IMG/VR virus record: IMGVR_UViG_3300028602_000008
Strand: one strand, 5' to 3'
Length of the DNA: 64,000 bases
From: an uncultured virus (IMG/VR IMGVR_UViG_3300028602_000008)
Lineage: Duplodnaviria; Heunggongvirae; Uroviricota; Caudoviricetes
Shown here: piece after piece, positions 1 through 63,691 of the stretch
Layout of the letters: every line of letters begins with the position of its first letter
Position numbering within the stretch: position 1 is the stretch's first letter
Position numbers and translations under genes: made by a program
The notes under the pieces: generated by a model
The model's input: only the letters and a program-made list of their open reading frames with translations
What the model was told of the DNA's origin: nothing
Databases searched by the model: none

Positions 1-233
1 CTGCAACGGGTGTTATGGATATGGCTTTGGATGCGATCGCTTGGGCATACTACAATTTGGCAGGAACAGTTGGATCGTTGTACATGCAAGGAACGCTAGG
101 CGACGTTAAGCTGCTCGGCGGCGGCGCTTGGGCTGTTGCGACGCGTGCCGGGTCGCGGGCGCGTTGTGCGGCTTACTCTCGCTGGTATGCGCATACGTCT
201 TTCGGCGGTCGCTTTGTCGCGGAGCCACAATAA
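1..233 (+). CDS. DGR target protein, 3' end (C-type-lectin/FGE-sulfatase-like fold; probable receptor-binding or adhesin protein), truncated by window start
   Basis: Open frame to TAA at 231-233; C-terminus LLGGGAW...FGGRFVAEPQ is typical of CLec-fold VRs and its DNA matches the TR at 287-403. Confidence 0.9.
   Translation, partial: ATGVMDMALDAIAWAYYNLAGTVGSLYMQGTLGDVKLLGGGAWAVATRAGSRARCAAYSRWYAHTSFGGRFVAEPQ
111..227 (+). repeat. DGR variable repeat (VR)
   Basis: 117 nt ungapped match to 287-403; 29 of 30 mismatches are at TR adenines. Confidence 0.97.
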
Positions 234-242
234 TTGTTATTC

Positions 243-263
243 GGAGTGCGGAAGTCGCACTCC
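243..263. promoter_or_regulatory. DGR target-recognition hairpin/cruciform downstream of VR
   Basis: GGAGTGCG-gaagt-CGCACTCC, perfect 8 bp stem starting 10 nt after the target stop codon. Confidence 0.85.
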
Positions 264-286
264 ATTAATAGGTTGAGCGAGTCTAC

Positions 287-403
287 CTGCTCAGCAGCAG
301 CAATTGGAATAATGCGACGAATGCCAGGTCACAGGCACGTAATGCGAATAACTATCGCTGGAATGCGAATACGAATATCGGCAGTCGCTTTGTCACAGAT
401 CCA
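287..403 (+). repeat. DGR template repeat (TR)
   Basis: AAT-rich copy of the VR (reads LLSSSNWNNATNARSQARNANNYRWNANTNIGSRFVTDP in VR frame), directly upstream of the RT. Confidence 0.97.
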
Positions 404-512
404 GGAAAATCGCGGAGAGCAACTCCTGGCTGGACTCGCTAACCTTGTCGAGAGGCAAAACACACAACGGAGGAGGAAAACAATTAGTACATAATGGAAA
501 GTTGTCTTCCTC
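401..512 (+). ncRNA. Structured spacer of the DGR template RNA between TR and RT
   Basis: Stems CCAGGA(401-406)/TCCTGG(424-429) and GAGGAAAACAAT(473-484)/GTTGTCTTCCTC(501-512); position matches the priming spacer of characterised DGRs. Confidence 0.65.
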
Positions 513-522
513 ATAAATTATC

Positions 523-1521
523 ATGAAACGACACGGAAATCTATTTGGGAAGATAACGGATTTGGATAATATATATTTAGCATATGCTAAAGCTAAAAAA
601 GGAAAAAGTTGGCAGAATACGATTAGTCGGTTTGATGATGACTTGGATGAAAATATATTTAATATTCGAGATTCGTTAATTGAAAAGACGTTTACAACAT
701 CATCGTATATTGAAAAAATGATATATGAACCAAAACAAAGAATCATTTACAAGTTACCCTTTAACCCAGATAGAGTCGTGCAACACGCCTTAATGAATAT
801 ATTAGAACCAATATGGAATGGATTGTTTATTTACGATTCGTATTCATGCAGGATCGGAAAAGGCATCCATGCTGCCAGCCGACGAACTATGGATTTTATT
901 CGAGCTACAGGACCTGGTTCATATTGTTTGAAAATGGATATCAGAAAATTCTATCCATCTATAGAGCATGATATTCTTTTTGATATAGTAAAAAGAAAAA
1001 TCAAATGTGAAGATACTCTTTGGTTATTAAAGGATATAATTTACAGTATTCCCGAAGGCAAAAATATACCCATTGGTAATTATTCTAGTCAATGGCTTGG
1101 AAATTTATACATGAACGAATTAGATCAGTATTTAAAACACCACCATAGAATAAAACATTACATTCGATATTGCGATGATTTTATAATATTACACCAAGAT
1201 AAAAAGTTTCTTGGTAAAATGGCACATGATATAGAAGGATTTTTGATGGATACTCTAAAATTAAAACTGAGCAAGAATGACATTTTTCCGATTAGCCAAG
1301 GAATAGACTTTTTAGGTTATCGACATTTTCCTAACCATATTTTAGTTAGAAAATCCACAGCGACTAGAATTAAACATAGAATGCATGAACTTCCGGGAAA
1401 ACTGTATCGAGGTGAAATAACCCCAGACCAATATCAATCTTCAATTGCATCAACCAAAGGTTGGCTTCTTTGGGCAAACAGTTATAACTTTATGCGGTCA
1501 TTGGAGCTTACTAATGCCTGA
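523..1521 (+). CDS. DGR reverse transcriptase
   Basis: 332 aa; DRVVQHA, LKMDIRKFYPSI, PIGNYSSQ (DGR-type SQ motif), RYCDD, GIDFLGY; no maturase or endonuclease domain. Confidence 0.97.
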   Translation: MKRHGNLFGKITDLDNIYLAYAKAKKGKSWQNTISRFDDDLDENIFNIRDSLIEKTFTTSSYIEKMIYEPKQRIIYKLPFNPDRVVQHALMNILEPIWNGLFIYDSYSCRIGKGIHAASRRTMDFIRATGPGSYCLKMDIRKFYPSIEHDILFDIVKRKIKCEDTLWLLKDIIYSIPEGKNIPIGNYSSQWLGNLYMNELDQYLKHHHRIKHYIRYCDDFIILHQDKKFLGKMAHDIEGFLMDTLKLKLSKNDIFPISQGIDFLGYRHFPNHILVRKSTATRIKHRMHELPGKLYRGEITPDQYQSSIASTKGWLLWANSYNFMRSLELTNA

Positions 1522-1801
1522 ACGATTTGGTGATTTTGCGGAAGAGGAAGCTTTTGATGGAGACAAGCTTCGGCTAGATGAAATTCTAGATAAAGAGATC
1601 TTAGTTAGTGGTTTCAAAATCAAAGATAGTCATCAGAAGAAAGATACCCAATATCTTACAATTCATTTTACGTTGAATGGGAAACAACATATTACTTTTA
1701 CAGGCTCGACCGTGTTGATGGACCAACTCAAGAAATACGAATCACATTTACCATTTTTATCAGTCATCAAAAAAATAAATCGTCATTATACGTTTTCGTG
1801 A
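1514..1801 (+). CDS. Small protein coupled to DGR RT (candidate accessory factor)
   Basis: ATG at 1514 overlaps RT stop; 95 aa, beta-rich pattern with FTGS motif. Confidence 0.75.
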   Translation: MPERFGDFAEEEAFDGDKLRLDEILDKEILVSGFKIKDSHQKKDTQYLTIHFTLNGKQHITFTGSTVLMDQLKKYESHLPFLSVIKKINRHYTFS

Positions 1802-1808
1802 GGTAGTT

Positions 1809-2105
1809 ATGAGAGGATATCCAAGAAACCCCAACGCTTTGACGAAAGTAGATATATTGAATCTACTTTCCATGCCGGAACATGCGGAAAAGGCAGCCAA
1901 GGATCTAGCGGAATTAGCTAAAATAGATGACAGTAAGATTATAGTTGACAAAGGAACACAAGAGCGACCAGATATAAAACAGGTAGATAATCCTTTTCCG
2001 AGCTGGAAAAGAACTGGATTTCGAAGTAAGGAGGAGATGCTGACTATTGCGAAAGTGAAATTAGAACCAGCACCAATTGAAGATCCGGTCGAGAAGGAAG
2101 GATAG
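1809..2105 (+). CDS. Hypothetical protein
   Basis: GAGGT RBS, co-oriented with the DGR operon. Confidence 0.7.
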   Translation: MRGYPRNPNALTKVDILNLLSMPEHAEKAAKDLAELAKIDDSKIIVDKGTQERPDIKQVDNPFPSWKRTGFRSKEEMLTIAKVKLEPAPIEDPVEKEG

Positions 2106-2110
2106 CTGGT

Positions 2111-3268
2111 TTAACCCAGCTCTCCCCATCCTTTTTTCCATAAATCGCTTAGCCGTCCAAAGTACTTTGTGTACCTGGGTGCTACTGCTTCCATGGAATA
2201 TTGGCTAACGGCCCAGTTCCTGCAGGCCTTGGGTTTGATTTTGCCCACATTCTTGGCTGCATTTACGAAGTCTCTGAGCACCATTCCCCGGTACCCAGTC
2301 ACGCCCTGCTGAACGGTCTCCGTGTAGCACCCAAAGTCCGTAGTGATCACGGGACAGCCGCTCATCATGGCCTCAACCGCTACCCCTTCGAAAGGCCCGA
2401 TGTACTTGGTGGTCGAAAACAGGCCTTTGGCGTGAGACAACAGCTCAATTTTCTCTTTCTCTGATACGTATCCTATGTACTCCACGTTCGGGGAGCTGAG
2501 GTCAACCGTCTCACCCGGCTGGCCCGCCAGGATGAGATGGCCGCCCATTGCATCCATGGTCTGGATAGCGATGTCAATGCCCTTTCTGCCGGCGATTCTG
2601 CAGTTCATGAAGAAATAATCTTCCTTATTTCCGATACGGTAATGATCCTTATCGTAGAAGTTCGGGATCACATCATCGTACCAATCGCCATCTACGAACA
2701 TCTTGCTCTGCGTCCACGCCTTATAAATTCCGTAGACGTAGTGCCTCCATGCATTGCTTTCGAAGACATGGTGGCAGTTCAGCAAAATCCCGTCATAGCC
2801 TATCCCGCTTTCAACTAGGAAGGGATACCCGTTGGCCTTTTCTACGCCGCCCTGGGCTACCGGCCTGCAAATCTCCTCATAATAATTTCCCATCGGATTA
2901 CAGAGAATATCTCCTGGTTCAACCCTTTCTAAGATCTCCCTGATTGCGTTCGTCTTGAAGATCTTGTAGGCTGGATCATCCCTACCATGCTTGAAGAATT
3001 GACTTGAGAAGTCCTCCAGAGGACCATAGATCCGCAGCCTATCTGCCTCGGACAGGACATCAACGGTTTCCTTAGCGACAACCTTGCTGCCCTCGACTCC
3101 GTAGAAAATGATGTCGAACTTGGGTGACATCATCTCACAGAACCTTCGGATCTTCTGAGTATAAGCGCAAGCGAATACCGGGTCTGCTGCTACGGTTGGT
3201 AGATGTGCCAACCCCATAACATGCAATCTTGGGGGCATCAAAGCCTTCGTATAAACTTTCTCAGTCAT
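2111..3268 (-). CDS. Glycosyltransferase, GT4/GT-B family
   Basis: RKG...PFEGVAVEAMMSGCPVITTDFG GT4 signature; start trimmed to MTEKVY. Confidence 0.9.
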   Translation of the reverse strand: MTEKVYTKALMPPRLHVMGLAHLPTVAADPVFACAYTQKIRRFCEMMSPKFDIIFYGVEGSKVVAKETVDVLSEADRLRIYGPLEDFSSQFFKHGRDDPAYKIFKTNAIREILERVEPGDILCNPMGNYYEEICRPVAQGGVEKANGYPFLVESGIGYDGILLNCHHVFESNAWRHYVYGIYKAWTQSKMFVDGDWYDDVIPNFYDKDHYRIGNKEDYFFMNCRIAGRKGIDIAIQTMDAMGGHLILAGQPGETVDLSSPNVEYIGYVSEKEKIELLSHAKGLFSTTKYIGPFEGVAVEAMMSGCPVITTDFGCYTETVQQGVTGYRGMVLRDFVNAAKNVGKIKPKACRNWAVSQYSMEAVAPRYTKYFGRLSDLWKKGWGELG

Positions 3269-4784
3269 TTGAACTCCTCGAAACTCTTCCCGGTGCAGCC
3301 ATGGCTTCAAATCTCTCACTACCGGGCAGAACCTTCATTAGAATATCCTTAGCCCAGGGCTTAGCTATTGGTTTTACTGTAGCTGGCTTCTTGAACCTGA
3401 CTATGACCAACTGCGTTCTGAGCCTGCCGAAAGGATGGGTGTAATCGTCGATCTCGGGCATGATCTTGACAGCATACACGCTTCGGTCAATGGCATCGAC
3501 CACGGCCTTGGCCCCAATGAAAGGTAGCTCTGGGAAGTAGTCATCCAGTACGACCACAGTATTTTCATGCATCGATGTTTTTGCAAATTCCCAGTCACTC
3601 TTAATTGTTTCAAGCGAGTGCCCTCCGTCTATGAACATCAAGTCAATCGGCGGCCAGCTCTCGGGCGACAGGCGGGGCAGCTCCCTGGAGTCCATCTCCG
3701 CCAGAGTGATGGTTGCCTGGGTTTCTGTCTCCAGCCGGGCCTTCACCACAGCCATCTTCGGAGGAACGTATCCTCCGGTGAACTCAGCTTCCCATTGATC
3801 CGGCTTTCCGCTATCGAAAAGGTCTATCCCGAAGTACCTGATATTCTTCTCACCCTCGGCCTCCCCGGCGAGCTTAATCATTCCTATTGCAGTCTCTCCG
3901 GATGACGTACCTATTTCGAGAACGGTCTTCGGCTGAGAACTTCGAATAGCCTCAAACAGGCCCTTGTAGTGCTTTCCACGAGCACTTAGGTATGCTTCCT
4001 CATTCCAAGGCGCTCTCACGTTCCATTCATGGATTGGCAGGATTTCCCTTATCAGCCTGGCCAGCAGCGAGACGCTGGTTCGCACCCATTCTGCGTCAAT
4101 CGTATCAAAGATGGTTGCCGCTTTCGAATAGAGATGTACGACCCTGGTCTCTTTGGGCAGCGTTACCAGCTCCGCAGGATCTTCCCTATATATCGCACTT
4201 ATTTCGTTACCACCAAAGGGATTCAATACCAAATGCGGCGTTATCTTGAACCCACGAGCCAGGTTCTCACAGGCGATGGTGCTCAAAATAATCGGCCCGG
4301 TCAGCCCCCATGGGATACCTTCCATACCCATTATGGCATCAGTGAACCGTCTAATCGCCTTCGTGAGATGGGTGCCGGGTACAGCCATCACCACTGCGCT
4401 ATTGAACGGGAACGGGATGCTCTCGTAATCCTCGACATCCAAGCTTGCCGTCATCAGATCATCATTTATTAGATCTGAAATGTCTTTGATGCATATGGTA
4501 TCGAGATCAAGAACAATCCCCCCCACCTCATCCAGCACACGCCACATGACAAAATCCTTTGCATGTGTAAACTGGAAAGTGGGTGTCGTCTTTCGCAATG
4601 CCGGCATGTCCAAGACTATCGGCATTAGGGTTACCAGAGGGGCGATCTTGTCAAAATAGATCCCAGTTGGTTTTACGGTGTACCAAATGTTGACTCTTTC
4701 AACATGTTGGGTTGCGATAGCGGTCTGAACAGCTATCATGTGCATGTATTTGAAAGGGCCAGTACTGACATAATGTAACTCCAT
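3261..4784 (-). CDS. Fusion: DxD glycosyltransferase (GT32-like) + class I SAM methyltransferase
   Basis: N-half GGIVLDLD, WGLTGP; C-half VLEIGTSSG, MFIDGGHS, VVLDDY. Confidence 0.85.
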   Translation of the reverse strand: MELHYVSTGPFKYMHMIAVQTAIATQHVERVNIWYTVKPTGIYFDKIAPLVTLMPIVLDMPALRKTTPTFQFTHAKDFVMWRVLDEVGGIVLDLDTICIKDISDLINDDLMTASLDVEDYESIPFPFNSAVVMAVPGTHLTKAIRRFTDAIMGMEGIPWGLTGPIILSTIACENLARGFKITPHLVLNPFGGNEISAIYREDPAELVTLPKETRVVHLYSKAATIFDTIDAEWVRTSVSLLARLIREILPIHEWNVRAPWNEEAYLSARGKHYKGLFEAIRSSQPKTVLEIGTSSGETAIGMIKLAGEAEGEKNIRYFGIDLFDSGKPDQWEAEFTGGYVPPKMAVVKARLETETQATITLAEMDSRELPRLSPESWPPIDLMFIDGGHSLETIKSDWEFAKTSMHENTVVVLDDYFPELPFIGAKAVVDAIDRSVYAVKIMPEIDDYTHPFGRLRTQLVIVRFKKPATVKPIAKPWAKDILMKVLPGSERFEAMAAPGRVSRSSND

Positions 4785-5299
4785 TAAATATCCTCCGGAA
4801 AATTTAATACTGCAAATAAACCATATCGTACTTTTGCCTCGGCGTCATATGCGCGAGCAGCGTCTTCTTCCGTATCAAAATATCCTAACCATGTTCGTGT
4901 TCCCCCCTGAATAGCCGCACTCCATTTTTCATCTCGTTTATGCCACCACACACCTTTAAATTGACTAGATTTTGATTTACCCTGTACTCGCTGATTACGT
5001 AAATTTTCGGATTTGGTAGCTAATCTTATATTTGATCGACGATTATCCCGCCCATCGTGGTTTTTATGATCGGTTTCCTCATTTTTTTTAAGTGATCTAC
5101 CTATCATACGCTCCAATATAACACGATGCATCCTAATATTCGGTTTTCCTCGACCCATTCGACTATCTCGAACAGCATACCAAATTGGATTTGATTTCCT
5201 ACCTTGTCTAACTACAGACCATTTAAAATTAACTAAATCAGCATCAACCTCATCAACAACAGCAACTTGATCTTGGGTTAATGGGATTTTTATTACCAT
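4784..5299 (-). CDS. HNH-AP2 homing endonuclease
   Basis: MHR...[16 protein letters not shown] followed by AP2 (SQFKGV...[15 protein letters not shown]); AT-rich relative to neighbours. Confidence 0.92.
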
Positions 5300-5549: not shown

Positions 5550-6110
5550 TCAAGTGCCAATTGGAATCCACTCCGATCCGAGCTTTTCTACCTTCGGGAT
5601 GTTGATCATAGCCGGCATCCAATCCGGGTCTTTATCCAGTTTGGCCCTTTGAATCCGAGAGCCAGTGAAGTAATGAATTTTGTACTCAACTACATTACCC
5701 TCAGCAGTCTTTCGGGTTCTACGTTTTCCGGTTTCCCGGATAGCGATATTAACTACGCCGGTATTGGCAATCTTCAGAGCAGCTTGGCGAGGAGACTTAC
5801 CAGTGTATTTTCCGATATCGTTATGATCAGTATCAAGAAGCATGTAATTCCGCTTTTCAGAATCGGGGGGATGAGCCCTATGGGGCTCCGACTTGAAGGC
5901 CTGCTTTTTCCCACCCTTTGCCTTAACAGATTTCTTTCCCTTAGTTGCAGATGCAGCCTTGACTATAGGTGCCTTAGTAGCTACGGGTTCTTTGGTAACT
6001 ACAGGTTTGGTTGCTGGGGTTTTCTTTATCTTTACGGTTTCCGGAACTACGGAAACTTTACCAGCGTTAGCGATTGCTGGTTTTTTCGGCGTTTTCTTAG
6101 GCTTAGCCAT
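5550..6110 (-). CDS. Chromosomal protein MC1 homologue with Lys/Ala/Pro/Thr-rich N-terminal extension
   Basis: C-half KRNYMLLD...GKYTGKSPRQAALKIAN...IRETG...KIHYF...PDWMP..I..PKV matches MC1 motifs (TGKQPRQAALKAANRG, PAWMP). Confidence 0.88.
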   Translation of the reverse strand: MAKPKKTPKKPAIANAGKVSVVPETVKIKKTPATKPVVTKEPVATKAPIVKAASATKGKKSVKAKGGKKQAFKSEPHRAHPPDSEKRNYMLLDTDHNDIGKYTGKSPRQAALKIANTGVVNIAIRETGKRRTRKTAEGNVVEYKIHYFTGSRIQRAKLDKDPDWMPAMINIPKVEKLGSEWIPIGT

Positions 6111-45454: not shown

Positions 45455-45940
45455 TCACTGCTCTGCTAATTTTTGCAATAGCTCTCGGTTTTGATCTACG
45501 CTGTTAGCGACGTGTCGGCGTTCGCTGCTTGAGAGTGCAAACCCACCAGGAACTGGAATCGTATTACTGGCTTTCAAAGATGATAGGCTGAGGAAGAGCT
45601 TTACTTTGAAGGCTATGAACCTATCATATTTTGTGTTGTAGCTATCGATTTCGTTCCAGAGGGCTTTTTCTGACTCGTCGATTGGAAGAGCTTCTGCCAG
45701 GATTTGAGCTGGGAGATGATAGATATCTCTCATTTCGGCTACGTCCGTGATCCTACCCCATAGGGCTCCTTTGACAGCATAACCTCGTCTTAGTTCAACG
45801 GTGCGTCCAGTATATACGGTTTTGTGGTTGAATCGAGGGCTGACTGCTCGAATCTCCCAGAGCTTCGTTCCTGCTTTGAATAGGTCATACCATTTCTTGT
45901 TTAACGGCACGAAGAGTCGATCTTCACTCATGCTTGTCAT
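45455..45940 (-). CDS. ASCH/PUA-like domain protein
   Basis: L.KKWYD.F.AGTK.WEIR...RRGY. Confidence 0.75.
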   Translation of the reverse strand: MTSMSEDRLFVPLNKKWYDLFKAGTKLWEIRAVSPRFNHKTVYTGRTVELRRGYAVKGALWGRITDVAEMRDIYHLPAQILAEALPIDESEKALWNEIDSYNTKYDRFIAFKVKLFLSLSSLKASNTIPVPGGFALSSSERRHVANSVDQNRELLQKLAEQ

Positions 45941-46328
45941 ATTCCTCCGAGAATATTATTGTATCTATCTTGGCGTTTTTCAGTACCCGGCGACACATTA
46001 CGCATGGAGAATGGGTGCAATAGAGCGTGGCCCCTTTAATGGAGACTCCATGGAGAGCTGCCTGAATGATGGCATTCACCTCAGCGTGAACTGCTCTGCA
46101 GGTCTCGAATTTGGTAGCGTGCTCGGGTTTTGAGCAGCCAATGTCGAGGCAGTGCTCTTCGCCACTTGGCGCTCCATTGTAGCCGGTAGAGATGACCTGG
46201 TTGTCGATTACGAAGATGGCACCTACCTTGTTATGGGTGCATGTGGACCGAGAGGCCACTACTTTGCACATCTCTAAATAGTAAGTGTCTATATCAGGCC
46301 TGGTATCGATTAAGGTTTGGGTTTTCAT
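45924..46328 (-). CDS. dCMP deaminase
   Basis: RSTC...VGA...STGYNG...HAEVNAI...HSPCVMC. Confidence 0.93.
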   Translation of the reverse strand: MKTQTLIDTRPDIDTYYLEMCKVVASRSTCTHNKVGAIFVIDNQVISTGYNGAPSGEEHCLDIGCSKPEHATKFETCRAVHAEVNAIIQAALHGVSIKGATLYCTHSPCVMCRRVLKNAKIDTIIFSEEYDKHE

Positions 46329-46330
46329 GG

Positions 46331-46855
46331 TTACATCTCTGGAAAATTTAATTTAGCATACTCACCAAAATGTAGTTTTGCGGCTGTATCATAAGCAAGT
46401 GCAGCGTCTTTTTCGATAACAAAAAGACCTAAATAAAGCATTTTTTCGTTTTTTTGTATTTGAGCATACCATTTAGAATGTTTTTTATGCCACGTTACCC
46501 CTTTATATTGACTATGCGCATTCATATTTCGTTTTCGTTGGTTCATTGCATTTTGGGATCTTGTTACTACTCTCAAATTTTTAAGTGTGTTTTTTAGGCC
46601 ATCGTGATCAATATGATCGATTTCCTCGGACTTTAAAAGTGGTCTGTCCAATTTGATGCTCATGATAACGCGATGTATAAGATCTACTGATACAACACTA
46701 TGTAAATGTATTGTACGTGCGGCGTAATAGCGAGCGTGTGAATTACGTAGATCGCGTCTGGCATACCATTTATATTGATTCAGATATTCAAACTCGTCAT
46801 CAATTTGAGTTACCATTCCCCGAGTTAGTTGAATTTCGATCATTTCTGCCCCCAA
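46331..46855 (-). CDS. HNH-AP2 homing endonuclease
   Basis: IHR...DHIDHDGLKN...NLR; SQYKGV...LGLF..EKDAALAYD. Confidence 0.92.
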   Translation of the reverse strand: MGAEMIEIQLTRGMVTQIDDEFEYLNQYKWYARRDLRNSHARYYAARTIHLHSVVSVDLIHRVIMSIKLDRPLLKSEEIDHIDHDGLKNTLKNLRVVTRSQNAMNQRKRNMNAHSQYKGVTWHKKHSKWYAQIQKNEKMLYLGLFVIEKDAALAYDTAAKLHFGEYAKLNFPEM

Positions 46856-47635: not shown

Positions 47636-48382
47636 TCACGCACACGCCATGCTTACTGCTATCTTTTTGCAGAACGGTACATCCATAGTCTCTCCGAGGA
47701 GCCGGGCTACTTCTGGCCAGTTGAACCAGTATATGTGGGCTGATTCTGAGAACAGTATGAGGTTTCCTATTTCGCAATTTCCCACTGCATCGGCTATGAA
47801 CTCCATGACCCCGGATAACCCGTATGTGTTGGCAGGATAAGCACCAAACATATCATGGGAGCGATAAGGAACGATAGCATTCAGCCGATCTCCCCGGATG
47901 AGTGCCTGAAAAGACATCATGCAGGGCGGAGATTCAGTTTTCTCGTCGTAGGGCGGCACCCAGGTAACGGCGATGGCTCTGCGACTGGAACGATCCCGCT
48001 TCAGCTCTCGGATGATGTAGTCGAGCTGGTCAATGGAGATAAGCTGGCTGTTCTTTGTCCAGACCTGGCCAGCTCCCCAGGCTCGCAGCCTTGAACCATA
48101 AGTGTACTCAAACCCAGGGTTGAAACTGGTAAGGAATCCTGCCTTATAATCCTCCCAGGAGTTTGAGCCTGCCTTCCAAATGTAACCATCGGGGAAAGCT
48201 CCCTTATCCGGGAGATATATCTGGCTTCGGAGGCCCATAATTTCAACCGTTTCTATGGGTTTGTTGTCATAGATAACTTCGGTGAGCGTTCCAAAGTGCC
48301 ATATTTGTCTGAGACATTCCATCCAGACCTCGGGTGTATGATGGCCTACGATATTTAGGTTTTCCTGTAATTTGTTCAGCAT
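47636..48382 (-). CDS. thyA: Thymidylate synthase (archaeal-type ThyA)
   Basis: YTYGSRL, SRRA, PPCM, YRSHD...PAN, SAHIY. Confidence 0.92.
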   Translation of the reverse strand: MLNKLQENLNIVGHHTPEVWMECLRQIWHFGTLTEVIYDNKPIETVEIMGLRSQIYLPDKGAFPDGYIWKAGSNSWEDYKAGFLTSFNPGFEYTYGSRLRAWGAGQVWTKNSQLISIDQLDYIIRELKRDRSSRRAIAVTWVPPYDEKTESPPCMMSFQALIRGDRLNAIVPYRSHDMFGAYPANTYGLSGVMEFIADAVGNCEIGNLILFSESAHIYWFNWPEVARLLGETMDVPFCKKIAVSMACA

Positions 48383-50157: not shown

Positions 50158-51348
50158 TCAATCTTTGCTATTCAAAACGGCATCCCAGGTTCGTAGGTTG
50201 CCGATGTTGGCCGGTATTTTAAATATCGCGTTTATGGTCTTTGTTTCGCCTGGTTCAACAGTGTAGGGATATTTAGGTTCACCCATGTATTCAAAGTCCC
50301 CGCTCGTTCCGTGTAAAATTACCCCAAGCCATCCATGCCATGCGGCATTACCATTATTTCTAACGGCAAATTCAAATGTCGAGGTGTAAGCCGATGAGTA
50401 GATTTTATTACATGATGGTGGTCCCAACATTTCAAGTGATGGTAGCAATGAGACTGGTGCATTGGATGATCGGCATGGTGTAAGTGCCAACTGTATTCCA
50501 ACTTGCGTACCTACCAGAGACTCTGCCCCAGGAACCCACACACGCCCTTGACCCTCGAGTATGGCAAGTTGGTTAATATTCACGGTATCCGGGTAGTAAA
50601 CCTGGCAAACTTGCCGGCCATAGGAATCCTGTCCCTTGACCACTAATTTGACCACTGTCCCTGGTGGGATCTTATCTGACAACCAGGTCTTAGCGGTTCT
50701 GCCGTTTGGATAGGACAATTCCCCTGAAGAGACACCCTCGAGTCTCACTTCGAAGGGTTTCGTGACGCAGAGCTGCCACGAGGCACAGACCTGGGATGCT
50801 TCGAAGGAGTCTCCGTCGATGATGGTTATCACCCTGGCACTTACCGTAGAACCAGAGATGGGTGTAACCAAAGGCAAGCTTGCGAGATACGAGGCCAGTG
50901 AATTATTGATATTCTCTGATCCTCTGGTTATGATAAATGTGTTGCCAATAGGAGTCAAGGTTAGGTTTGATCCTATGGGTACGTGTAAAGCCAGCCAATC
51001 TCGGGCCTGGGCGTCATTATCTGATGTGGTTACGACACCCTGCAGGGCAATGTTTTTCTGGGTTGCGTCGCATACCTGGCCAGCCAGGCAGTCCAGCAGA
51101 ACGCTTAGGTTGGATCCACTGTTGACGGAAACCAGTTTACCTGTGATTTCCAGACCAACTTGCGGGGGGGTATATACACTACCCAATGCCGAAAAGATCC
51201 AAGCAATATCGGTTGGTCCTACATCGGTATCATTCAGTAAATCAGATTTTATTGCTCGTAGAAGACCTATAGAGCTTAGAACGTTACCACTAAAAAAGGT
51301 AGTAGCGAGCCAGGTCTTGCGAGTGTCTGTGAGTACCATTTTAGACAC
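50158..51348 (-). CDS. Thermonuclease (SNase)-domain protein with C-terminal Ig-like domain
   Basis: IIDGDSF...VRLEGV...DSYGRQV...NIN; V.N.G...W...V.PGET. Confidence 0.8.
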   Translation of the reverse strand: MSKMVLTDTRKTWLATTFFSGNVLSSIGLLRAIKSDLLNDTDVGPTDIAWIFSALGSVYTPPQVGLEITGKLVSVNSGSNLSVLLDCLAGQVCDATQKNIALQGVVTTSDNDAQARDWLALHVPIGSNLTLTPIGNTFIITRGSENINNSLASYLASLPLVTPISGSTVSARVITIIDGDSFEASQVCASWQLCVTKPFEVRLEGVSSGELSYPNGRTAKTWLSDKIPPGTVVKLVVKGQDSYGRQVCQVYYPDTVNINQLAILEGQGRVWVPGAESLVGTQVGIQLALTPCRSSNAPVSLLPSLEMLGPPSCNKIYSSAYTSTFEFAVRNNGNAAWHGWLGVILHGTSGDFEYMGEPKYPYTVEPGETKTINAIFKIPANIGNLRTWDAVLNSKD

Positions 51349-54300
51349 CTCCGTAGGTGGCGATCAAGCTCAGAACATCGGCTGCAGAGAAGCTCCAAGT
51401 TCCTGAAATAGCTGGAGTTGCATCTGCTTTTGCTGATGCAGCTAAAGCTGAATCATTGTTTAAGACTGCATAAGCATAAACGATGTGGTCTGGGTTCAAT
51501 ACATTCTCCCCGCCAATGGCTGCCAGGTATTTCTGAACGTTGGTCTGGGTTGCAGTATCCACATAGAGTGTTACTGATTTTCTGGCTATACTTCCTGCGT
51601 AAACCTGAACAGGGATGGTATATGACTTATAGCCAGCTTTCTTGATAACTATTGTGTGGACTCCGGCCTCTACTTCGATGATTATGTCCGTGTCACCGAT
51701 TTTATCAGTGCCTTCGTAAACCTCTGCGTTTAGGCCTGCAGCATCGATGAAGATACCGGTCTGACCAGTGGACTTGGAATACGAAGATCCTCCACCATAC
51801 GATTTTCCGCCTGAACTCTTACCTCCACTGCTATATGATTTGCTAGATGAGCTTTTAGCTGAGCAGTTGTAGGTACAGATCCAGTTATTTGGATCGGCCA
51901 GGAAAGCGGCTACATCGGTTCCGCCAGCGTTTATGAAGGCAGCATACTTTCCGGTGTCCACCGTCAGCTCAGCTCCACCAGCTTCGGTCATTTTCTGGTC
52001 AACATCATAGTTGCCTGTAGCTGGATTAAGCAGCTTACCGTTTTGGATGATGTTTTCCGTATGCGGGTAGCCTGTATCATCCGTCCAAGCCACCTGGTTG
52101 CCTGATGCGGATATCTTGAAGTTAGACGGATTGTTCTGCCTGGCTGTGAATGCGGTTGCTTCGTCTGCAGTCAAGTATTGCTGGATTCTAGCGTTTTCAT
52201 TAATCATTCCGTTGGCTTTGTACTCAGCGAACTTTGCAGCTTTCTCCGGAATGGTTCCTGCTGATGCTAAATCAGCTTGAACCATCTTATTGATAGCTTC
52301 CTCAGGAAATAGGTCCTGCATTTGTGCCCCGGTCATATCCGGATACTGGGAAAGCAGTTTTGCTTTGTCAAGGCTACCATCAGGGTTAAGGAATATTGAT
52401 TTCCAGGCCAATGCATCCTCTGTGGTGCCTGTACCGTTGTAGTTCTTATATTTGGTCAAGGCATCCATTGAGGTGGGTGCCATTGCGAGCGCTGCCTGCT
52501 GGTCTAAATTTAGTCCCGTTAATGGGGCTCTGGCAACTCCAACTCCGCCCACAGCTACAGGTGCAACTCCACCACCAGTAACAATAGCTGCATTTTTGGC
52601 ATCGTTGTATGCCTGTTCAGCAAGTGCCGATTTTGCACCACCTTTAACGAGCTGGTCATAGGCCTTGGTGAACTCTTTTGTAAGAGTATCCTTTGCACCC
52701 ATGTTTCCAGCAGCAATCATGTGCCCGAGACCTACTTGGATAGCTTGAGTTGGATCCGTAATTCCGAGTCCCTGTGCTATAAGGTTATTTGGACCAACTG
52801 AACCATCTCCCTGCATATCGTAAATACGTCTTACCAGGTCACCATCCAAGAATGCGATGGTCTCTGGGTGCTGGGACCAGTAAGCAGGTCTTTCACTTTC
52901 TGGTCTCATTGTACCCCAGCAGCCAACTCCAAAGGTACATCCGGATGTATCGGGTATCCAAAGACCGCCGTTGACACCCTTGGTAATCTTATCTTTCATC
53001 ATAGCGGGTACTGCATTTTCATTGTACCATCTGAAACCTGCAGCTCCGGCAAATATAACCTCGGAGAAAGGAACATTGTCCAGTAGCCAGTTGAATGGAC
53101 CGAGAATCTCCCCGACTCTCTCCATGGCGGGTATGCCGGATTCGGACAGGAACTTCATGTACTGATCGAGAGGAGTATTCCAGCCGGTCATCTGAATGAT
53201 GGACTGGAAACCTTCCTCTGCAGCGAAGTACACGAACATCAAACCGTTAGCTACTACCCATACCTTGAAGGCTCCTTTAGCAAGCTGCCATGGACTGGTT
53301 GCAACTTTCCAAGCGAATCCACCAAGGCCTGTTACTGTACCTCGAATGAGTCTGCTGAACTTGTTTTGAGGTAGTACCTCTTTGATCTCAGTGAGCGTTT
53401 TTATATCCTCGACAGTATATTGTCTCTTTGTATAAAGTTCGTCTATGAATTTCTTATGCTTAGCACCTAACGAATTGTATCGAGGGCTTGCTTTGATGTC
53501 AGTAACGATTGCATCTTGGGCTGCCTTCTGATATTGAGAGGCTAGGTTGGGATCGATGTCGTAGACTGCATTGAAAGCGTCGTCTGCGAACCTTTCATCC
53601 TTGAGTGCTGTTCGAACATCTTTGTCAGCCAGCAACTTGCGGAGATCCCCCATCTTGTCTGCGGTGGCTGCATCCAGTACGCTGTTGAGCTTGATTCTGC
53701 CTATGTCTGCGCCGGCTGAGACGCCCTCGTAAGCTCCAGCATTATCTAATATGCGTTCCATCTGCTGATAATCAGGCTGGTTGAGCTGTCGGGTTCTGGC
53801 CTTGCTGATAAGTTCCTGGTCGGGTTTTGACATTTTGGCCACTAAGGAGTCGTCGAGTCTATTAGCGGCTCCCTGGTAGTTGTAACCCATGATTTTTTCG
53901 GCCTGGGTTCTATCGCTACCCAACTTTTCCGAGATGGATGCTGCAAAGTCCTCAGCTTCTCCTCGGGACATGTTTTTGATGGTGTCTCGGAAGGCCGTAT
54001 TCTTGCCTAGTGTCTCTTCTAATACCTTTTTGCCATCCTGAACGGGTATATTATCAAGCTCCCGTAACAGATCATTGGCTGCGTTATTACCTTCAATAAC
54101 ACGTACACTTGCGGATTTTTGCTGTTTTGCAGCTTCATAAGATTCCTGAATGAATCGCTTGCTCTTATCGTTAAGTCCGGATGCTTTCACTTTTAGAGCA
54201 TCGATTTGGACTTTTATACCAGCCTTATCTCCTTTTGCGGCTGTAGCGTATTTTTCTCCTAGCTCCCTTAGCTCGTCACTAACGGCTGAAATATCTTGCT

Positions 54301-54676
54301 CAACAGCTTCCCTTTCAGCAGACCGAAGCCTGGATTGCTCTGCAATTCTACCATATTCAGTTGCCATGTCGGCAGCAGAAGTTGATGCTGCCGGTTCACC
54401 ACCTCGAACAAAGTCGGTTTTAGCTGTGTCCAATTCTGTTCGAAGCTCTGATACTGCAGCCTCAGTACTTGGCCTGGGGTTCTCAGCGAAACGGGTCTCG
54501 GCATCGGCTACTTGTGTTTCAAGTTCACGTACCCTACTAGGGACCACGGTTCGAGTTGGAGCTGCGATGTTGGATGCAACTGGCGCACCATGTGTCATAA
54601 GTTCCACTTCGTCTTCTCGAATCGAGGATGATAACGAGCTGATCATGTTATCTGCCATACAATTAGTACTTGGCAT
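51341..54676 (-). CDS. Large (1111 aa) protein: coiled-coil N-terminus, central hydrophobic helices, PEGA domain
   Basis: AEVY.G...IG.T...GVHTIVIKKAGY PEGA pattern; Ser/Gly linker. Confidence 0.8.
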   Translation of the reverse strand: MPSTNCMADNMISSLSSSIREDEVELMTHGAPVASNIAAPTRTVVPSRVRELETQVADAETRFAENPRPSTEAAVSELRTELDTAKTDFVRGGEPAASTSAADMATEYGRIAEQSRLRSAEREAVEQDISAVSDELRELGEKYATAAKGDKAGIKVQIDALKVKASGLNDKSKRFIQESYEAAKQQKSASVRVIEGNNAANDLLRELDNIPVQDGKKVLEETLGKNTAFRDTIKNMSRGEAEDFAASISEKLGSDRTQAEKIMGYNYQGAANRLDDSLVAKMSKPDQELISKARTRQLNQPDYQQMERILDNAGAYEGVSAGADIGRIKLNSVLDAATADKMGDLRKLLADKDVRTALKDERFADDAFNAVYDIDPNLASQYQKAAQDAIVTDIKASPRYNSLGAKHKKFIDELYTKRQYTVEDIKTLTEIKEVLPQNKFSRLIRGTVTGLGGFAWKVATSPWQLAKGAFKVWVVANGLMFVYFAAEEGFQSIIQMTGWNTPLDQYMKFLSESGIPAMERVGEILGPFNWLLDNVPFSEVIFAGAAGFRWYNENAVPAMMKDKITKGVNGGLWIPDTSGCTFGVGCWGTMRPESERPAYWSQHPETIAFLDGDLVRRIYDMQGDGSVGPNNLIAQGLGITDPTQAIQVGLGHMIAAGNMGAKDTLTKEFTKAYDQLVKGGAKSALAEQAYNDAKNAAIVTGGGVAPVAVGGVGVARAPLTGLNLDQQAALAMAPTSMDALTKYKNYNGTGTTEDALAWKSIFLNPDGSLDKAKLLSQYPDMTGAQMQDLFPEEAINKMVQADLASAGTIPEKAAKFAEYKANGMINENARIQQYLTADEATAFTARQNNPSNFKISASGNQVAWTDDTGYPHTENIIQNGKLLNPATGNYDVDQKMTEAGGAELTVDTGKYAAFINAGGTDVAAFLADPNNWICTYNCSAKSSSSKSYSSGGKSSGGKSYGGGSSYSKSTGQTGIFIDAAGLNAEVYEGTDKIGDTDIIIEVEAGVHTIVIKKAGYKSYTIPVQVYAGSIARKSVTLYVDTATQTNVQKYLAAIGGENVLNPDHIVYAYAVLNNDSALAASAKADATPAISGTWSFSAADVLSLIATYGGV

Positions 54677-54677
54677 T

Positions 54678-57600
54678 TTATTGTCCTCCTGCTTTTCGAA
54701 CTATATACGGTAAGTCAGTCTCCACTAAATCCACACCTTTGTAGAGATTACCACTTTTAGTCACGTATTCAGCGCTTCGGTCTATTTGGTCCATGCTGGT
54801 AAATGCCGCAGGTGCTGTTGCATTAACCTGGGTTGCTGGTGCGGCCCATTTTTGTGATTCGGCTCGCTGTGCTGCTAATCGTTTTTGGTCTGCCAGTTGG
54901 TTCTCAATGATCGGTATTGCTTGGGCCTCACTCATATTCTGATAGTTATCTTGATACTTAACCAAGTTGGGTAGATCGGAATCAGTTATCGTTGATCCCA
55001 ACAAATACTCACCATCTCCGGTTACATAATACTGACTTGGTATTATGCCGGCAGGTACCTTTTCAGAGGGGGTTCGGCTCAATCCACCTTCTGGACTCGA
55101 CGTACCATACTTAGCTCTCAGTTCGGCATCAGCGTTCGCTATCAGGTTATTTTTGTAGTTCATTCCCTCCATGCCGATGATGCCTGCAGCCAGTCCCGCA
55201 GCACTGGCACCGGCGATGGTCAGGAGAGGAGTCAAGCCTTTCGCACTTGCACCCAATCCTGCGGAAAATCCGGTTCCTGCTCCGCATACTACCTTTTCGG
55301 CCTCACCGAAGCGATCAGCAAAGTTCGTCTTGATATCCTCGACGCTTCTCAGCAATGCATTCTTATCTTCAATGCCTTGTTTTACCTCCTCGATATGAGC
55401 ATATTTGGTCTTTCTGCCGGCCAACATATCTGCTCGGGACTGAGCAACGCGGTTGTTGATATCCTTAACTCTGGATTCCAGAGATCTCATGAAGTTCCTG
55501 TCTTTGATTTCACCCCGGATGATGGCCTTTCGAGACTCATTAAGACCCAGTTTTTCGATATCGAGTTGCTCAATATCATCCATGTTTCTTGCAACCATGT
55601 CCTTAAACGTGGTCTCGTTTAAGCCCTTCATTTCGCTTCGCCAAGCGTTCTGTAGCTCGTCGAGTTCAGCCTGGGTGTATCTGGATTTTTCTAATCCGGT
55701 TGGTATGACTTCCTGGGCTTTGGCTGCCTGGGGTTGGACTACTTCAGCAGCCTTTCCTGCGGGTACTTCGCCGGTGGTTGCTCGCACTTCATCCATCAGA
55801 TTGGATCTGGTTTCGTCCAGATATTTGGTGAGGTACGGCAATTCATCTTCTGGCAGGTTTCGAATTTCGGCTGCATTGTCGGAGATGAATTTCCGGTAGT
55901 CGTTAGCACTCAGTTTCTGGATATCCGTGCCAGCAAGACCATTGATTCGGATTGCATCCTGCTCAAAGAGGTCTACTTTCTTACCTACCGTGAAAGCCTT
56001 TGATTTATCAGCTTCTCGGATTGTGCTCCAAACTTGCCCGTCCGGGGTCCTCAGGTCGATTTTAACGAACTCTTTGGTCATGTCCTTAGACAGGCCGCCC
56101 GCATCCGTCAAACCTTTCCAAGTGGTCTCGGGGAAACTGAATGGGTCTACTTTGGTAACGGCCTCGACTATGCTCCCATTTGCATCACTTGGAATTCTAA
56201 ACTCGTTTGGTACGTTAGTTGGCATCTCCCAGAAATACATATCTAGTGGCGCACGAGTAGAACTGATTGCCTCGTCTGCAGTGGTTATGAATTCATTTTT
56301 GGCAACAAATGAGATATCTTTGCCATCCGGGGATCTTACGACCCAACCATCCAACTTCTTATATGCGTAACTGGTTGCTTGGTAGCCATCTTCGCCAGCT
56401 ATGACTAAGCCTTCGTCTCTGGCTTTCTGGAATGTTGTCTCCATGACATACTTGGTTGGACCTTTGGCCTTCTCTCCTATTATGATATCAGCGTACTTGT
56501 TATTACCGAGAACCATTTCAGAAACGCTGAAATCAACGTTCTCAGCCTTCCACCATGGGGGCATGTCCATGATAAGATTCTTAGAGGACCTCATGGCTTC
56601 TACGGTTTTGTCCCAGCTAGCAGATGTCGGAATAGTCCAATCTTTCCGAACCTCATTGAACTGATTAAGCAGGTTTGGAATATTGCTGGGCTCACCGGCA
56701 TAATACCCGAGTTCTGCGTTGATGATTTTCTTGGCCTCTGGGGAAGCTCCCTGATACTCATTTGACATGAGGAATTTTCCAAGATTCTCTTCTGCCTTGG
56801 TTTGATGGACGATGATTTCTTTTTCAGGTGGTAGCCCGGATGCTTTGATTTCGGCATCAGTCATAATACCTATTTGTTCCCGGTTGCCCGTGATTAAATT
56901 TTCAAAATCATTCATGGGCATTAGGTTTGCACTGGTCTGGCCACCCGTTGCTGCATCGAAAGCCGCTTGACCTTCAGGAGACATCTTCGATCTCAGATAC
57001 AAAGCACGGTCGATTTCTTCTGCCGATAATGATTTACCGTCTTTAGCTTTGATAAGGATCTTAGTATCGGCATCAGACTTGATGATTCTGTCGAAATCAG
57101 AAGTCTTAGTAAAGATAGTCCAAGCGTCGGCTGCCTCTTCTACGGTGGTTGCTCTAGCCTCAATAGGAGCCATGGTTGCAGCATAGTTAGACTGCAGATT
57201 GGGTACATAGGATTCGTAGGAACTGGGTGTCTGGTAAGTGGCTACTTGAGTTGGCGCAACAGGTGTCGCTGCAGCAGCTTTCTCGGCGAGGTATGCACCG
57301 TATTCGTCAGGAGTTTGTCTGGCGTTGGTCCATGGATTCTGGATTTCGAAGCTTCCGTCAGCTTTTTTGTAATAATAGTACCCGCCTTCAGCGCTCCAGA
57401 TGGGTGTCTCGGATGAACCTTTGAGGGCATCGTAAACATCTTTAGTAACCCAGTTTCCGGTCATCTCATCCAGATATTGAACTACATGGGTAGCATCGTT
57501 GGTTCTGATCCTGGCGGTGCCATCCACACCCATGGTGAAAGTCGGATTATTAGCGGCAATGGCTGCTCTTTCGGCATCCAAGTCTGTCTTTGTAACCCAA

Positions 57601-62452: not shown

Positions 62453-63691
62453 ATGGAGGTGAACCGGATGCCAGAACTAGATACAACGGACCTGAGCTAC
62501 CCAGTAAACGAGAGTGATATCCTCGCCATAGATAACAAGATAGATGCTTTGGCGAGACAATGGCTTGTCAGAGTACAAACCAACTTCTGGCAGTTCGATG
62601 CAGCCGTTAGAACCAGGGTTACGTGGTTTAATGAGCAACATTACAATCCTCTGAGAGTTTACGAAGGTATTTTGCCTCATTATGCGGCTCTGTTAGCTGA
62701 TTTGAACAACTTTAAGAAGTTTCTGGATGACAATAGTTTTCCATTAACAAGTTCGTACTATCAATACTATGAAGCATATGCTCTTTATTACGCAGGTTAT
62801 GCTGACGTAGCAAAGCCCCCGGCATTGGTTCAGGAGGATTTGGATCGGGGTACTATCATAGGTATTTGTGAAAAGGTTGATGACGGGGATACTTTGTTTG
62901 TTGGTGGGAAAGAAGTACGGATGGTGGGCATCAACAGCCAAGAGAAAGGAACATTTTCAGGTGGTGGCGCTGCGACTACCCGACTGAGGGAATTGGCCGA
63001 AGGTAAGATGGTAACGGTCTACTTTGATCCTTACACGCCCCTTGAGATGTACCGTAGAGTCCTGGGCGCAGTCTACCTGGGGGATGGAAGTCGCGAAGCG
63101 CTTTACCTGAGACCGGATTGGAAGAAATTGTTCTTGAATTATATAATGGTTGACGAATGCCTAGCAGAACCAACTGATAAGGGCAGGAACAATTTTGTTG
63201 ACCCGTATGAATTCAAAGCGGCCTGGGCGAAATGCAAGATAGCCGACACTCCGAACCTGGCCAGGCTCACTATTAAGAGCAATCCAACTCATGCCAGGAT
63301 TTACGTGGATGGTAAAGCAGTGCCCAAAGTTACACCCGACTGGGTAGACATGTCGCCTGGCACCCATCACATCGTAATTGCGGCAGATGGTTGCAGTGCC
63401 TGGCACGAGGATGTAGATGTAAACTACGGTGACAATAAGTTTTTCAGAAAGCTTCTGCCGTTACCGATAGCCGTCGGAGTCCTAAACATCTTTACAGACC
63501 CGGAAGATTGCGACATAATCATAAACGATATGCCGCAAGGTTTGGCACCCCTAATCGGAGTTCAGATGTTGGCAACAACACCTGTAGTTATCACAGCTTT
63601 GAAGGAAGGATTTGAACCAAAAACGGTTAGCGTATTGCCTTTAGCGGGTAGGTATATTGATATCAAGTTTGACCCGCTTGAAAAAGTTTAA
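62453..63691 (+). CDS. Thermonuclease (SNase) + two PEGA domains
   Basis: VDDGDTL...VRMVGI...EMYRRVLG..LN; IKSNP.HARIYVDG...TP...GTHHI; IFTDP...I.IND. Confidence 0.85.
   Translation: MEVNRMPELDTTDLSYPVNESDILAIDNKIDALARQWLVRVQTNFWQFDAAVRTRVTWFNEQHYNPLRVYEGILPHYAALLADLNNFKKFLDDNSFPLTSSYYQYYEAYALYYAGYADVAKPPALVQEDLDRGTIIGICEKVDDGDTLFVGGKEVRMVGINSQEKGTFSGGGAATTRLRELAEGKMVTVYFDPYTPLEMYRRVLGAVYLGDGSREALYLRPDWKKLFLNYIMVDECLAEPTDKGRNNFVDPYEFKAAWAKCKIADTPNLARLTIKSNPTHARIYVDGKAVPKVTPDWVDMSPGTHHIVIAADGCSAWHEDVDVNYGDNKFFRKLLPLPIAVGVLNIFTDPEDCDIIINDMPQGLAPLIGVQMLATTPVVITALKEGFEPKTVSVLPLAGRYIDIKFDPLEKV

Follow-up and report, generated by a model that had tools for sequence, protein, structure and literature searches.

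Positions 1–2110 of a 64,000-nucleotide stretch of DNA from an uncultured virus (IMG/VR record IMGVR_UViG_3300028602_000008; the whole stretch is henceforth referred to as the window) form a compact diversity-generating retroelement (DGR), in which a target gene carrying the variable repeat (VR) is followed by a template repeat (TR), a reverse transcriptase (RT) and a small OB-like protein. By existing accounts, DGRs mutate all of their template adenines, each to any base, and TRs are thought to keep scaffold codons adenine-free. The whole RT lineage to which this element belongs tolerates up to 11 adenines per TR at scaffold and synonymous positions, where they are read as G. The adenines concerned have a 5' pyrimidine (Y) and a 3' G or C (S), whereas adenines followed by A or T (N-A-W, with N any base) are randomised. 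It is fairly probable, judging from sequence comparison, that this RT lineage, alone or with an accessory protein, inserts C opposite A in the Y-A-S context, so that these template adenines would be "silent".

Comparison of the template and variable repeats

The VR (from position 111) and the TR (from position 287) were aligned without gaps at an offset of 176 nucleotides. None of the 78 non-A positions of TR 287–399 differs, and all 29 mismatches in VR 111–223 lie at TR adenines. In the same interval, each of the 11 adenines preceded by C (293, 296, 299, 302, 326, 331, 333, 337, 383, 395 and 397) is G in the VR and the other 24 adenines give A6/G5/C7/T6, which reproduces exactly the hand count of the preliminary description of this DNA. 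The share of G at CpA and other adenines (G/non-G, 11/0 versus 5/19) differs significantly (Fisher p = 1.0e-5), and (5/24)^11 is 3.2e-8. A twelfth CpA, at 403 in the terminal part resembling the initiation of mutagenic homing (IMH) site, remains A.

Seven of the 11 sites are C-A-G (293, 296, 299, 326, 333, 383 and 397), three are C-A-C (331, 337 and 395) and one, 302, is C-A-A. Because 10 of the 11 are C-A-G or C-A-C, the effects of the 5' C and of the 3' G or C are inseparable in the window allele. Where the VR encodes glycine (GGC-GGC-GGC, GGG and GGT), the TR encodes three serines, an arginine and a serine (AGC-AGC-AGC, AGG and AGT). Three sites are synonymous third positions, namely TCA>TCG at 331, GCA>GCG at 337 and the third base of ACA>GCG at 397. 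Both observations had been made in the preliminary description, as had the caution that two CpA sites lie near the IMH, and all of them hold.

The two sites in question, 395 and 397, border a difference at position 400 between the TR version of this element (IMH*) and its VR version (IMH). TR/VR homology decays past 399 with fixed non-A differences, of which T400>G is the first and is conserved in relatives. TRs end in ...CACAGATCCAGGAAAA in nearly all close relatives, and VRs read ...GCGGAGCC...; since the TR and VR ends differ consistently across close relatives, T400>G is a fixed IMH*/IMH difference.

Organisation of the element

The features of the element are as follows.

3–233 (+): 3' end of the DGR target gene, an open reading frame (ORF) open at its 5' end, with stop codon TAA at 231–233
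111–227 (+): VR; positions differing from the TR span 117–221
243–263 (unstranded): hairpin just 3' of the VR and the stop codon, with an 8-bp stem (GGAGTGCG/CGCACTCC) and a 5-nucleotide loop
287–403 (+): TR, non-coding, with 36 adenines
404–522 (+): IMH*-like end of the TR/VR homology and 119-nucleotide spacer to the RT gene
523–1521 (+): DGR RT of 332 aa (Pfam RVT_1, E = 8.5e-20; phrog_1423, E = 6e-124)
1514–1801 (+): orfA, 95 aa, overlapping the RT stop codon; conserved candidate accessory protein
1809–2105 (+): orfB, 98 aa, following orfA in the close clade only

The element was recognised as a DGR by the adjacency of the RT to the repeats, the restriction of differences to TR adenines, the 3' position of the VR, and the IMH-type end with an inverted repeat. 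VR and TR form direct repeat D1 (73% identity over 124 nucleotides), and the VR ends 4 nucleotides upstream of the target-ORF stop codon, thus at the 3' end of a coding gene. No Avd-type Pfam match was obtained among the 7 + 81 window ORFs scanned. According to PMC5758913, Avd is missing from about a quarter of known DGRs, so that it is not strictly defining.

The target ORF matches phrog_11262 ("tail protein", E = 1.1e-8), and its full-length homologue in a related locus (L089), of 601 aa, contains Pfam PF21916 (Mtd second domain, E = 6.3e-11). By these matches, the product of 3–233 is a tail-fibre or Mtd-like receptor-binding protein. The hairpin at 243–263 has a DNA folding energy of -10.1 kcal/mol (z = -4.5), and 0 of 200 shuffles were equally stable. 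It sits where DGR target sites have a GC-rich inverted repeat, and a corresponding role is suggested by the position of such a repeat in Bordetella phage BPP-1 (PMC5758913 and PMC12875486). Again by analogy with BPP-1, RNA from 404–522 would recruit and prime the RT. RNA of the TR plus spacer folded no better than shuffles (z = -0.29), and its structure gives no explanation of the fixed adenines.

Context dependence across related DGRs

For a wider comparison, 240 loci with a gene for a related RT were used (80 viral, 80 metagenomic and 80 from genomes). TR/VR pairs were found with a script that scans diagonals for runs with A in one copy at every mismatch. An adjacent pair was present in 71 of the 81 sources of the first batch, made up of the window and 80 loci. 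In the second batch, 160 loci scanned for pairs on the same strand only, 117 had one. After removal of identical VRs, 176 pairs were retained, and two without an open frame were dropped, which left 174 pairs from 154 loci with 4274 TR adenines. The last 12 nucleotides of every pair were excluded to avoid the IMH, the frame of each relative was taken as its longest open frame, and RT identity bands are best-segment tblastn values. The loci share ancestry, and all TR/VR data represent natural VRs after selection. VR bases (A/C/G/T) at the three principal contexts were distributed as follows.

RT identity of at least 50%: CAG 3/0/194/1; CAC 5/0/30/2; TAG 2/0/4/0
RT identity of 40–49%: CAG 17/0/150/1; CAC 7/1/28/5; TAG 9/0/38/1
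RT identity below 40%: CAG 23/0/14/1; CAC 8/1/1/0; TAG 2/0/3/0

At RT identities of at least 50%, C-A-G and C-A-C together were G at 224 of 235 sites. C-A-A (55/46/82/63) and C-A-T (6/8/8/6), counted at RT identities of at least 40%, were random, as were G-A-A and T-A-A. The preliminary description had proposed a near-deterministic A>G class beside a random one and had defined the former as CpA. The existence of the two classes is borne out in about 145 related TR/VR pairs, including at synonymous sites, but the definition had to be revised once sites were tabulated by neighbours across related DGRs, with C-A-G and C-A-C (also T-A-G) fixed and C-A-A and C-A-T randomised. The fixed class is Y-A-S, chiefly C-A-G and C-A-C, and "CpA" is too broad. 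Since C-A-A is randomised in relatives, window site 302 probably became G by chance. From the sequences compared, the RT itself would be the cause of the A>G class.

The remaining tabulations refer to RT identities of at least 40%. C-A-G became G at about the same rate in codon positions 1, 2 and 3 (191/207, 64/68 and 89/91, respectively) and retained A at 20 of 366 sites, as counted in natural VRs rather than in complementary DNA (cDNA). N-A-G sites yielded almost only A or G, with C or T at 5 of 471. The share of G was 0/14 in A-A-G, 16/37 in G-A-G, 42/54 in T-A-G and 344/366 in C-A-G, an apparent 5'-neighbour effect that is confounded by the codons each context occupies.

Synonymous sites were considered separately. 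At four-fold synonymous third positions in C-A-G, C-A-C and T-A-G, G was present at 49 of 54 sites for RTs of at least 50% identity, 82 of 87 at 40–49% and 3 of 9 below 40%. From 40% identity up, 131 of 141 four-fold synonymous Y-A-S sites were G (p = 3.9e-5 against the band below 40%), and the earlier contention that protein selection alone is insufficient is upheld by this result.

TRs of the close clade carry a median of 7 silent adenines (maximum 11), many of them in scaffold Gly, Arg and Ala codons, compared with 1–2 elsewhere. The Y-A-S readout holds from 40% RT identity up, and the accumulation of adenines is special to the close clade of the window. Every Y-A-S site was G in 17 of the 24 closest pairs (median 7 sites). 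Because 7–11 scaffold-codon adenines would be ruinous unless they gave G nearly always, near-constant G insertion would follow; such a load appears unsustainable at the 20–30% G insertion seen for other adenines.

A separate difference was observed between the second adenine of AAC (A221/C18/G159/T56) and that of AAT (A453/C214/G152/T135; chi-square p = 1e-24), and it is present in every RT identity band. Both codons have the same amino acids within reach, so that the spectrum in natural DGRs generally is shaped by the 3' neighbour.

Template polymorphism among close relatives

The 24 closest pairs (RT identity of at least 70%; 21 distinct TRs and 24 distinct VRs) were compared after alignment of the TRs by column. 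Several window columns were polymorphic in the TR.

293: A8/G15
296: A8/G15
326: A11/G13
331: A10/G9
383: A17/G2

At the window C-A-G and C-A-C columns the VR was G whichever base the TR has, with 7 exceptions in 149 cells in which the TR has A. These were T at 299 in L092, A at 333 in L014, A at 383 in L089, three at 331 and one at 395. Such drift of TRs between CG and CA fits A and G being equivalent at Y-A-S sites. Contigs of relatives in several samples also had G at TR 326 and 331, among the matches listed.

One relative (L018, an IMG/VR contig) has a single TR at about 2759–2873 and two VRs, located 176 and 1351 nucleotides upstream. The outcomes at A-A-Y adenines differ between the two VRs, and both are G at 14 of 14 fixed-class sites. 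In sequencing run X3, at the level of contigs, at least four short VR contigs with 13–17 differences each were found with flanking contigs identical to the window, and the variable places among those listed (135, 136, 144, 145, 166, 171 and 172) were A-A-Y adenines. Mismatches at non-A template bases were rare in the first set of pairs (20 among 5603), and only 2 of them were T in the TR and C in the VR.

Distribution over the RT tree

At the fixed-class contexts, A is mostly retained in DGRs with RTs less than 40% identical (Bacillota, Patescibacteria, Pseudomonadota and others), and the changes that occur go to G. The difference between RTs of at least 50% and those below 40% identity was significant for both CAG (Fisher p = 3.6e-19) and CAC (p = 7e-5). 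Behaviour below 40% matches the prediction from the measured RT of the Bordetella phage (bRT).

A quick maximum-likelihood tree was prepared from 63 RTs with at least three informative sites, including 51 high-G and 5 low-G rows. The two states required 2 changes on this tree, whereas shuffles needed 4.9 and none of the 500 as few, although all 5 low-G rows are on long distant branches, so that their placement is unsure. Hosts of the high-G lineage include those of archaeal viruses, Bacteroidota, Melainabacteria, Spirochaetaceae and a Methanobacteriaceae metagenome-assembled genome (MAG). Since the lineage spans archaeal and bacterial hosts, the shared agent is likely element-encoded. One locus in the genome contigs (L169), from a binned Bacteroides sp. 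MAG, has an RT 82% identical to that of the window and is probably a mis-binned viral contig.

Proposed mechanism

In the mechanism proposed here, the RT would treat template adenines in two ways while copying the TR RNA. An adenine with a 5' pyrimidine (C or, less strictly, U) and a 3' G or C would be copied as G, with dC inserted about 95% of the time; this would happen when the RT has just copied a G or C and a pyrimidine comes next in the template. Adenines before A or U, as in A-A-Y codons, would show the ambiguous copying that is usual for DGRs. Under this rule, Y-A-S sites of the TR would be read out as G with either A or G in the template and the two bases would be equivalent, so that TRs could drift between CG and CA harmlessly, and AT-biased drift (the RT region is 67% A+T) would fill these sites with A.

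Two slippage models were considered and rejected. Slippage with re-copying of the 3' neighbour fits A-G>G-G but predicts C-A-C>C-C-C, and slippage with copying of the 5' neighbour predicts C-A>C-C; both are ruled out by the observed C-A-C>C-G-C. As neither model explains C-A-C>G, a true A:C mispair would be implied at that context.

A built-in two-class code in this RT lineage, with Y-A-S giving G about 95% of the time, N-A-W randomised and TRs writing scaffold G as A, is on balance somewhat likelier true than false. Any benefit of a scaffold written in A is a matter of speculation and might consist in a less GC-rich or less structured template RNA or in lower TR/VR identity.

Several points weigh against such a code. 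All evidence comes from natural, post-selection VRs rather than from cDNA, and most Y-A-S sites are in scaffold codons that need G anyway. The 24 closest pairs contain only 21 distinct TRs, and their cells are not fully independent. G-A-G (20/0/16/1) and A-A-G (13/1/0/0) often retain A, which requires a 5'-base effect without precedent. Equivalents of bRT residues R74 and I181, which reportedly promote adenine mutagenesis, are conserved in 13 high-G and 8 low-G RTs, with no sequence correlate of the two states. In bioRxiv 10.1101/2025.03.24.644984, the AG context lowers the mutation rate of bRT and the 5' base has no effect. The only interior adenine of the BPP-1 TR in a C-A-C context, A35, is also A in the reference VR and is mostly copied faithfully; with 28% misincorporation in vitro, it ranks with the most resistant adenines of that TR (PMC7826257). 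The proposed behaviour would therefore be a large departure from the one measured RT.

Should the two-class code be true, the choice of neighbours would programme each template adenine as "fixed G" or "random". If the RT is its cause, theoretical diversity estimated by counting TR adenines is too high for these elements, software that finds DGRs or calls their activity by "A>N" scoring misreads fixed A>G as diversification, and engineered DGR mutagenesis gains a deterministic, programmable A>G channel in addition to the random one. The synonymous-site data set also provides a natural, selection-controlled view of context in DGR mutagenesis beyond the single measured RT.

Alternative explanations

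The preliminary description had offered, as its own alternative, that the TR recently decayed from CG to CA, for example by cytosine deamination on the other strand, and that the VR has not since been rewritten. The TRs of relatives do differ by CG/CA at these very sites and the window is slightly poor in CpG (2669 CpG versus 4261 CpA), but diverged TRs, whose RTs are only 81–91% identical and whose VRs differ at A-A-Y sites, have these CA sites in common, and the VRs are steadily G where the TRs are polymorphic for A and G. Symmetric deamination should also yield T in the TR opposite C in the VR, which is the rare class among the non-A bases above, so that symmetric CpG deamination since the latest homing is excluded, and both the two VRs of L018 and the four or more different VR contigs between window-identical flanks in one sample speak against a VR that has not been rewritten; recent decay is rejected as very unlikely. 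It had also been asked whether the true template is another TR of the genome that has G at these positions. This idea is close to negligible in likelihood, as the 64-kb window holds no further TR- or VR-like copy (best other match 21 nucleotides, E = 1.4), the nearest compared genome (G001) is without a copy (best E = 0.03 over 22 nucleotides) and without the element, and the same A-bearing TR adjoins the RT in every close relative. A more serious contender, although an unlikely one, is a bRT-like RT that is mostly faithful at AG and AC, with G left by selection on the VR through scaffold requirements, nucleotide constraint or hitch-hiking. Scaffold residues are changed at 8 of the 11 window sites (Ser>Gly four times, Arg>Gly, Gln>Arg, Thr>Ala and Asn>Ala), and correlated errors (the "snowball effect") reported in the DGRec preprint could let synonymous sites hitch-hike. 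The four-fold synonymous sites argue against selection of this kind, as do the persistence of TR adenines across a clade of 70–100% RT identity and the retention of A at these contexts in distant DGRs with the same kind of target; with 7–11 sites per TR, the yield of all-G cDNA at bRT-like rates would be vanishingly small.

Short-patch G:T-to-G:C repair corrects deaminated 5-methylcytosine at CpG. A comparable process acting after synthesis could leave G inherited rather than templated, if cDNA carrying T opposite A formed G:T with the resident VR strand and was repaired to G:C. C-A>C-G is indeed a T:G mismatch in a CpG context, and N-A-G and N-A-C sites gave almost only A or G (C or T at 38 of 709 in the first set), as an RT inserting T or C followed by repair would give. 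T-A-G, however, is not CpG and was G at 18 of 19 synonymous positions, G was not "sticky" at N-A-A and N-A-T (21% G versus 39% A in the first set), and the trait tracks the RT tree across very different hosts rather than host groups; heteroduplex repair in Bacteroides retrohoming is reported to be all-or-nothing and MutS-dependent (10.1101/2024.11.15.621889). We regard repair of this kind as improbable, to about the same degree as selection. General GC-biased repair was rejected, as N-A-W sites have no G/C excess. Near-complete, context-dependent A>G change between a genomic template and its cDNA copy is the classical signature of A-to-I editing, and deamination of Y-A-S adenosines in the TR RNA to inosine would be read as G by any RT. 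The pattern here is alike in that signature, with A appearing as G in a neighbour-dependent manner, and unlike in its neighbour preferences, the 5' order C>U>G>A differing from that of ADARs. No candidate enzyme was found, the only deaminase of the window being a dCMP deaminase (ComEB, 1.8e-30; phrog_174, 2.4e-44; weak TadA match, 36.8 bits where the cutoff is 150); a virus-encoded deaminase as the RNA editor was discarded on this assignment by NCBIfam and PHROGs. Together with the spread of the trait over archaeal and bacterial hosts, this makes editing highly unlikely.

Comparison with known DGRs

The BPP-1 DGR (mtd-avd-TR-brt) shares with the window element a target with a 3' VR, adenine-only TR differences, an RT of the same family, the hairpin and a Mtd-like tail-fibre target; it differs in that the window lacks Avd and has a 95-aa OB-like protein after its RT. 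BPP-1 TR adenines are nearly all in AAC (20 of 23, PMC12875486), whereas the window TR has 10 adenines in scaffold codons. With G as the 3' neighbour of the template adenine, bRT is strongly biased towards A>G (bioRxiv 10.1101/2025.03.24.644984), and the 3' base outweighs the 5' base (PMC12875486). This 3'-G bias is present in the window lineage, where neither the drop in rate at AG nor the absence of a 5' effect is seen; the lineage keeps the direction of the bRT bias and inverts its magnitude. Raised misincorporation of G by bRT at N-A-C (sense A>C) is our reading of PMC12875486. The conversion of natural AAC second positions to C at only 18 of 454 sites is seemingly opposite, which could reflect the RT, selection or strand convention.

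Avd-less DGRs surveyed by Wu et al. 2018 (Architecture A; "Lineage 3 lacks avd"; PMC5758913) share the TR-RT core without avd. The accessory genes given in the accessible text of that survey are Avd, HRDC, MSL and CH1; it contains no OB-like protein 3' of the RT and no A>G context rule, and treats all TR adenines as A-to-N (PMC5758913). Outside subscription journals and preprint supplements, the literature searched describes neither fixed A>G at CAG/CAC template sites nor an OB-fold DGR accessory. Caudoviricetes sp. vir525 (BK063673.1; host Methanosarcinales per its record), a different virus and the best match in the phage collection, shows 72.7% nucleotide identity over 70% of window 1–2110; the match covers its annotated reverse transcriptase and two hypothetical proteins.

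Open reading frames downstream of the RT

tblastn places orfA immediately behind the RT gene in relatives with RT identities as low as about 41%, and 28 sequences were aligned (alignment A1). It was detected at many high-G loci, though not at every one, and at 0 of the loci below 40%, and a role of orfA as determinant of the adenine code is neither supported nor excluded. The AlphaFold2 model (pLDDT 87.8) has a b1-b2-b3-helix-b4-b5 topology and is predicted to be an OB-like five-strand barrel, not a helical bundle. Comparison of the model with VIA-align gave middling scores for the RuvBL2 DII domain (Z 7.2) and single-stranded DNA-binding proteins (Z 5.1–6.0), and these matches would indicate a fold class rather than a function. 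There was no Foldseek match in the PDB at E of 0.001 or below and no Pfam family in 28 of 28 members. The modelled protein may be an undescribed DGR accessory protein.

Matches to orfB (tblastn, 47–73% identity) were found directly after orfA in close relatives, and in more distant ones orfB was elsewhere or absent. It had no Pfam, NCBIfam or PHROG match.

Surrounding virus genes

By gene content, the window looks like a tailed archaeal virus, with an MC1 chromatin protein, DUF1699, a family-B DNA polymerase, a methanogen-type thymidylate synthase and a dCMP deaminase. Genes observed outside the DGR include the following.

2111–4784 (-), beside the DGR: group-1 glycosyltransferase (402 aa) and, at 507 aa, a protein with glycosyltransferase DXD and Methyltransf_24 domains
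4784–5299 (-) and 46334–46855 (-): two proteins with HNH_3 and AP2 domains, homing-endonuclease-like
5553–6110 (-): 186-aa protein with a C-terminal MC1 archaeal chromatin-protein domain (E = 3e-17)
45927–46328: dCMP deaminase
47639–48382: thymidylate-synthase homologue
51344–62225 (-) and 62453–63688 (+): ORFs of 2515 aa (no Pfam match), 1111 aa (PEGA domain) and 412 aa (PEGA domain)

The products of the 2515-, 1111- and 412-aa ORFs are probably virion or adhesion proteins.

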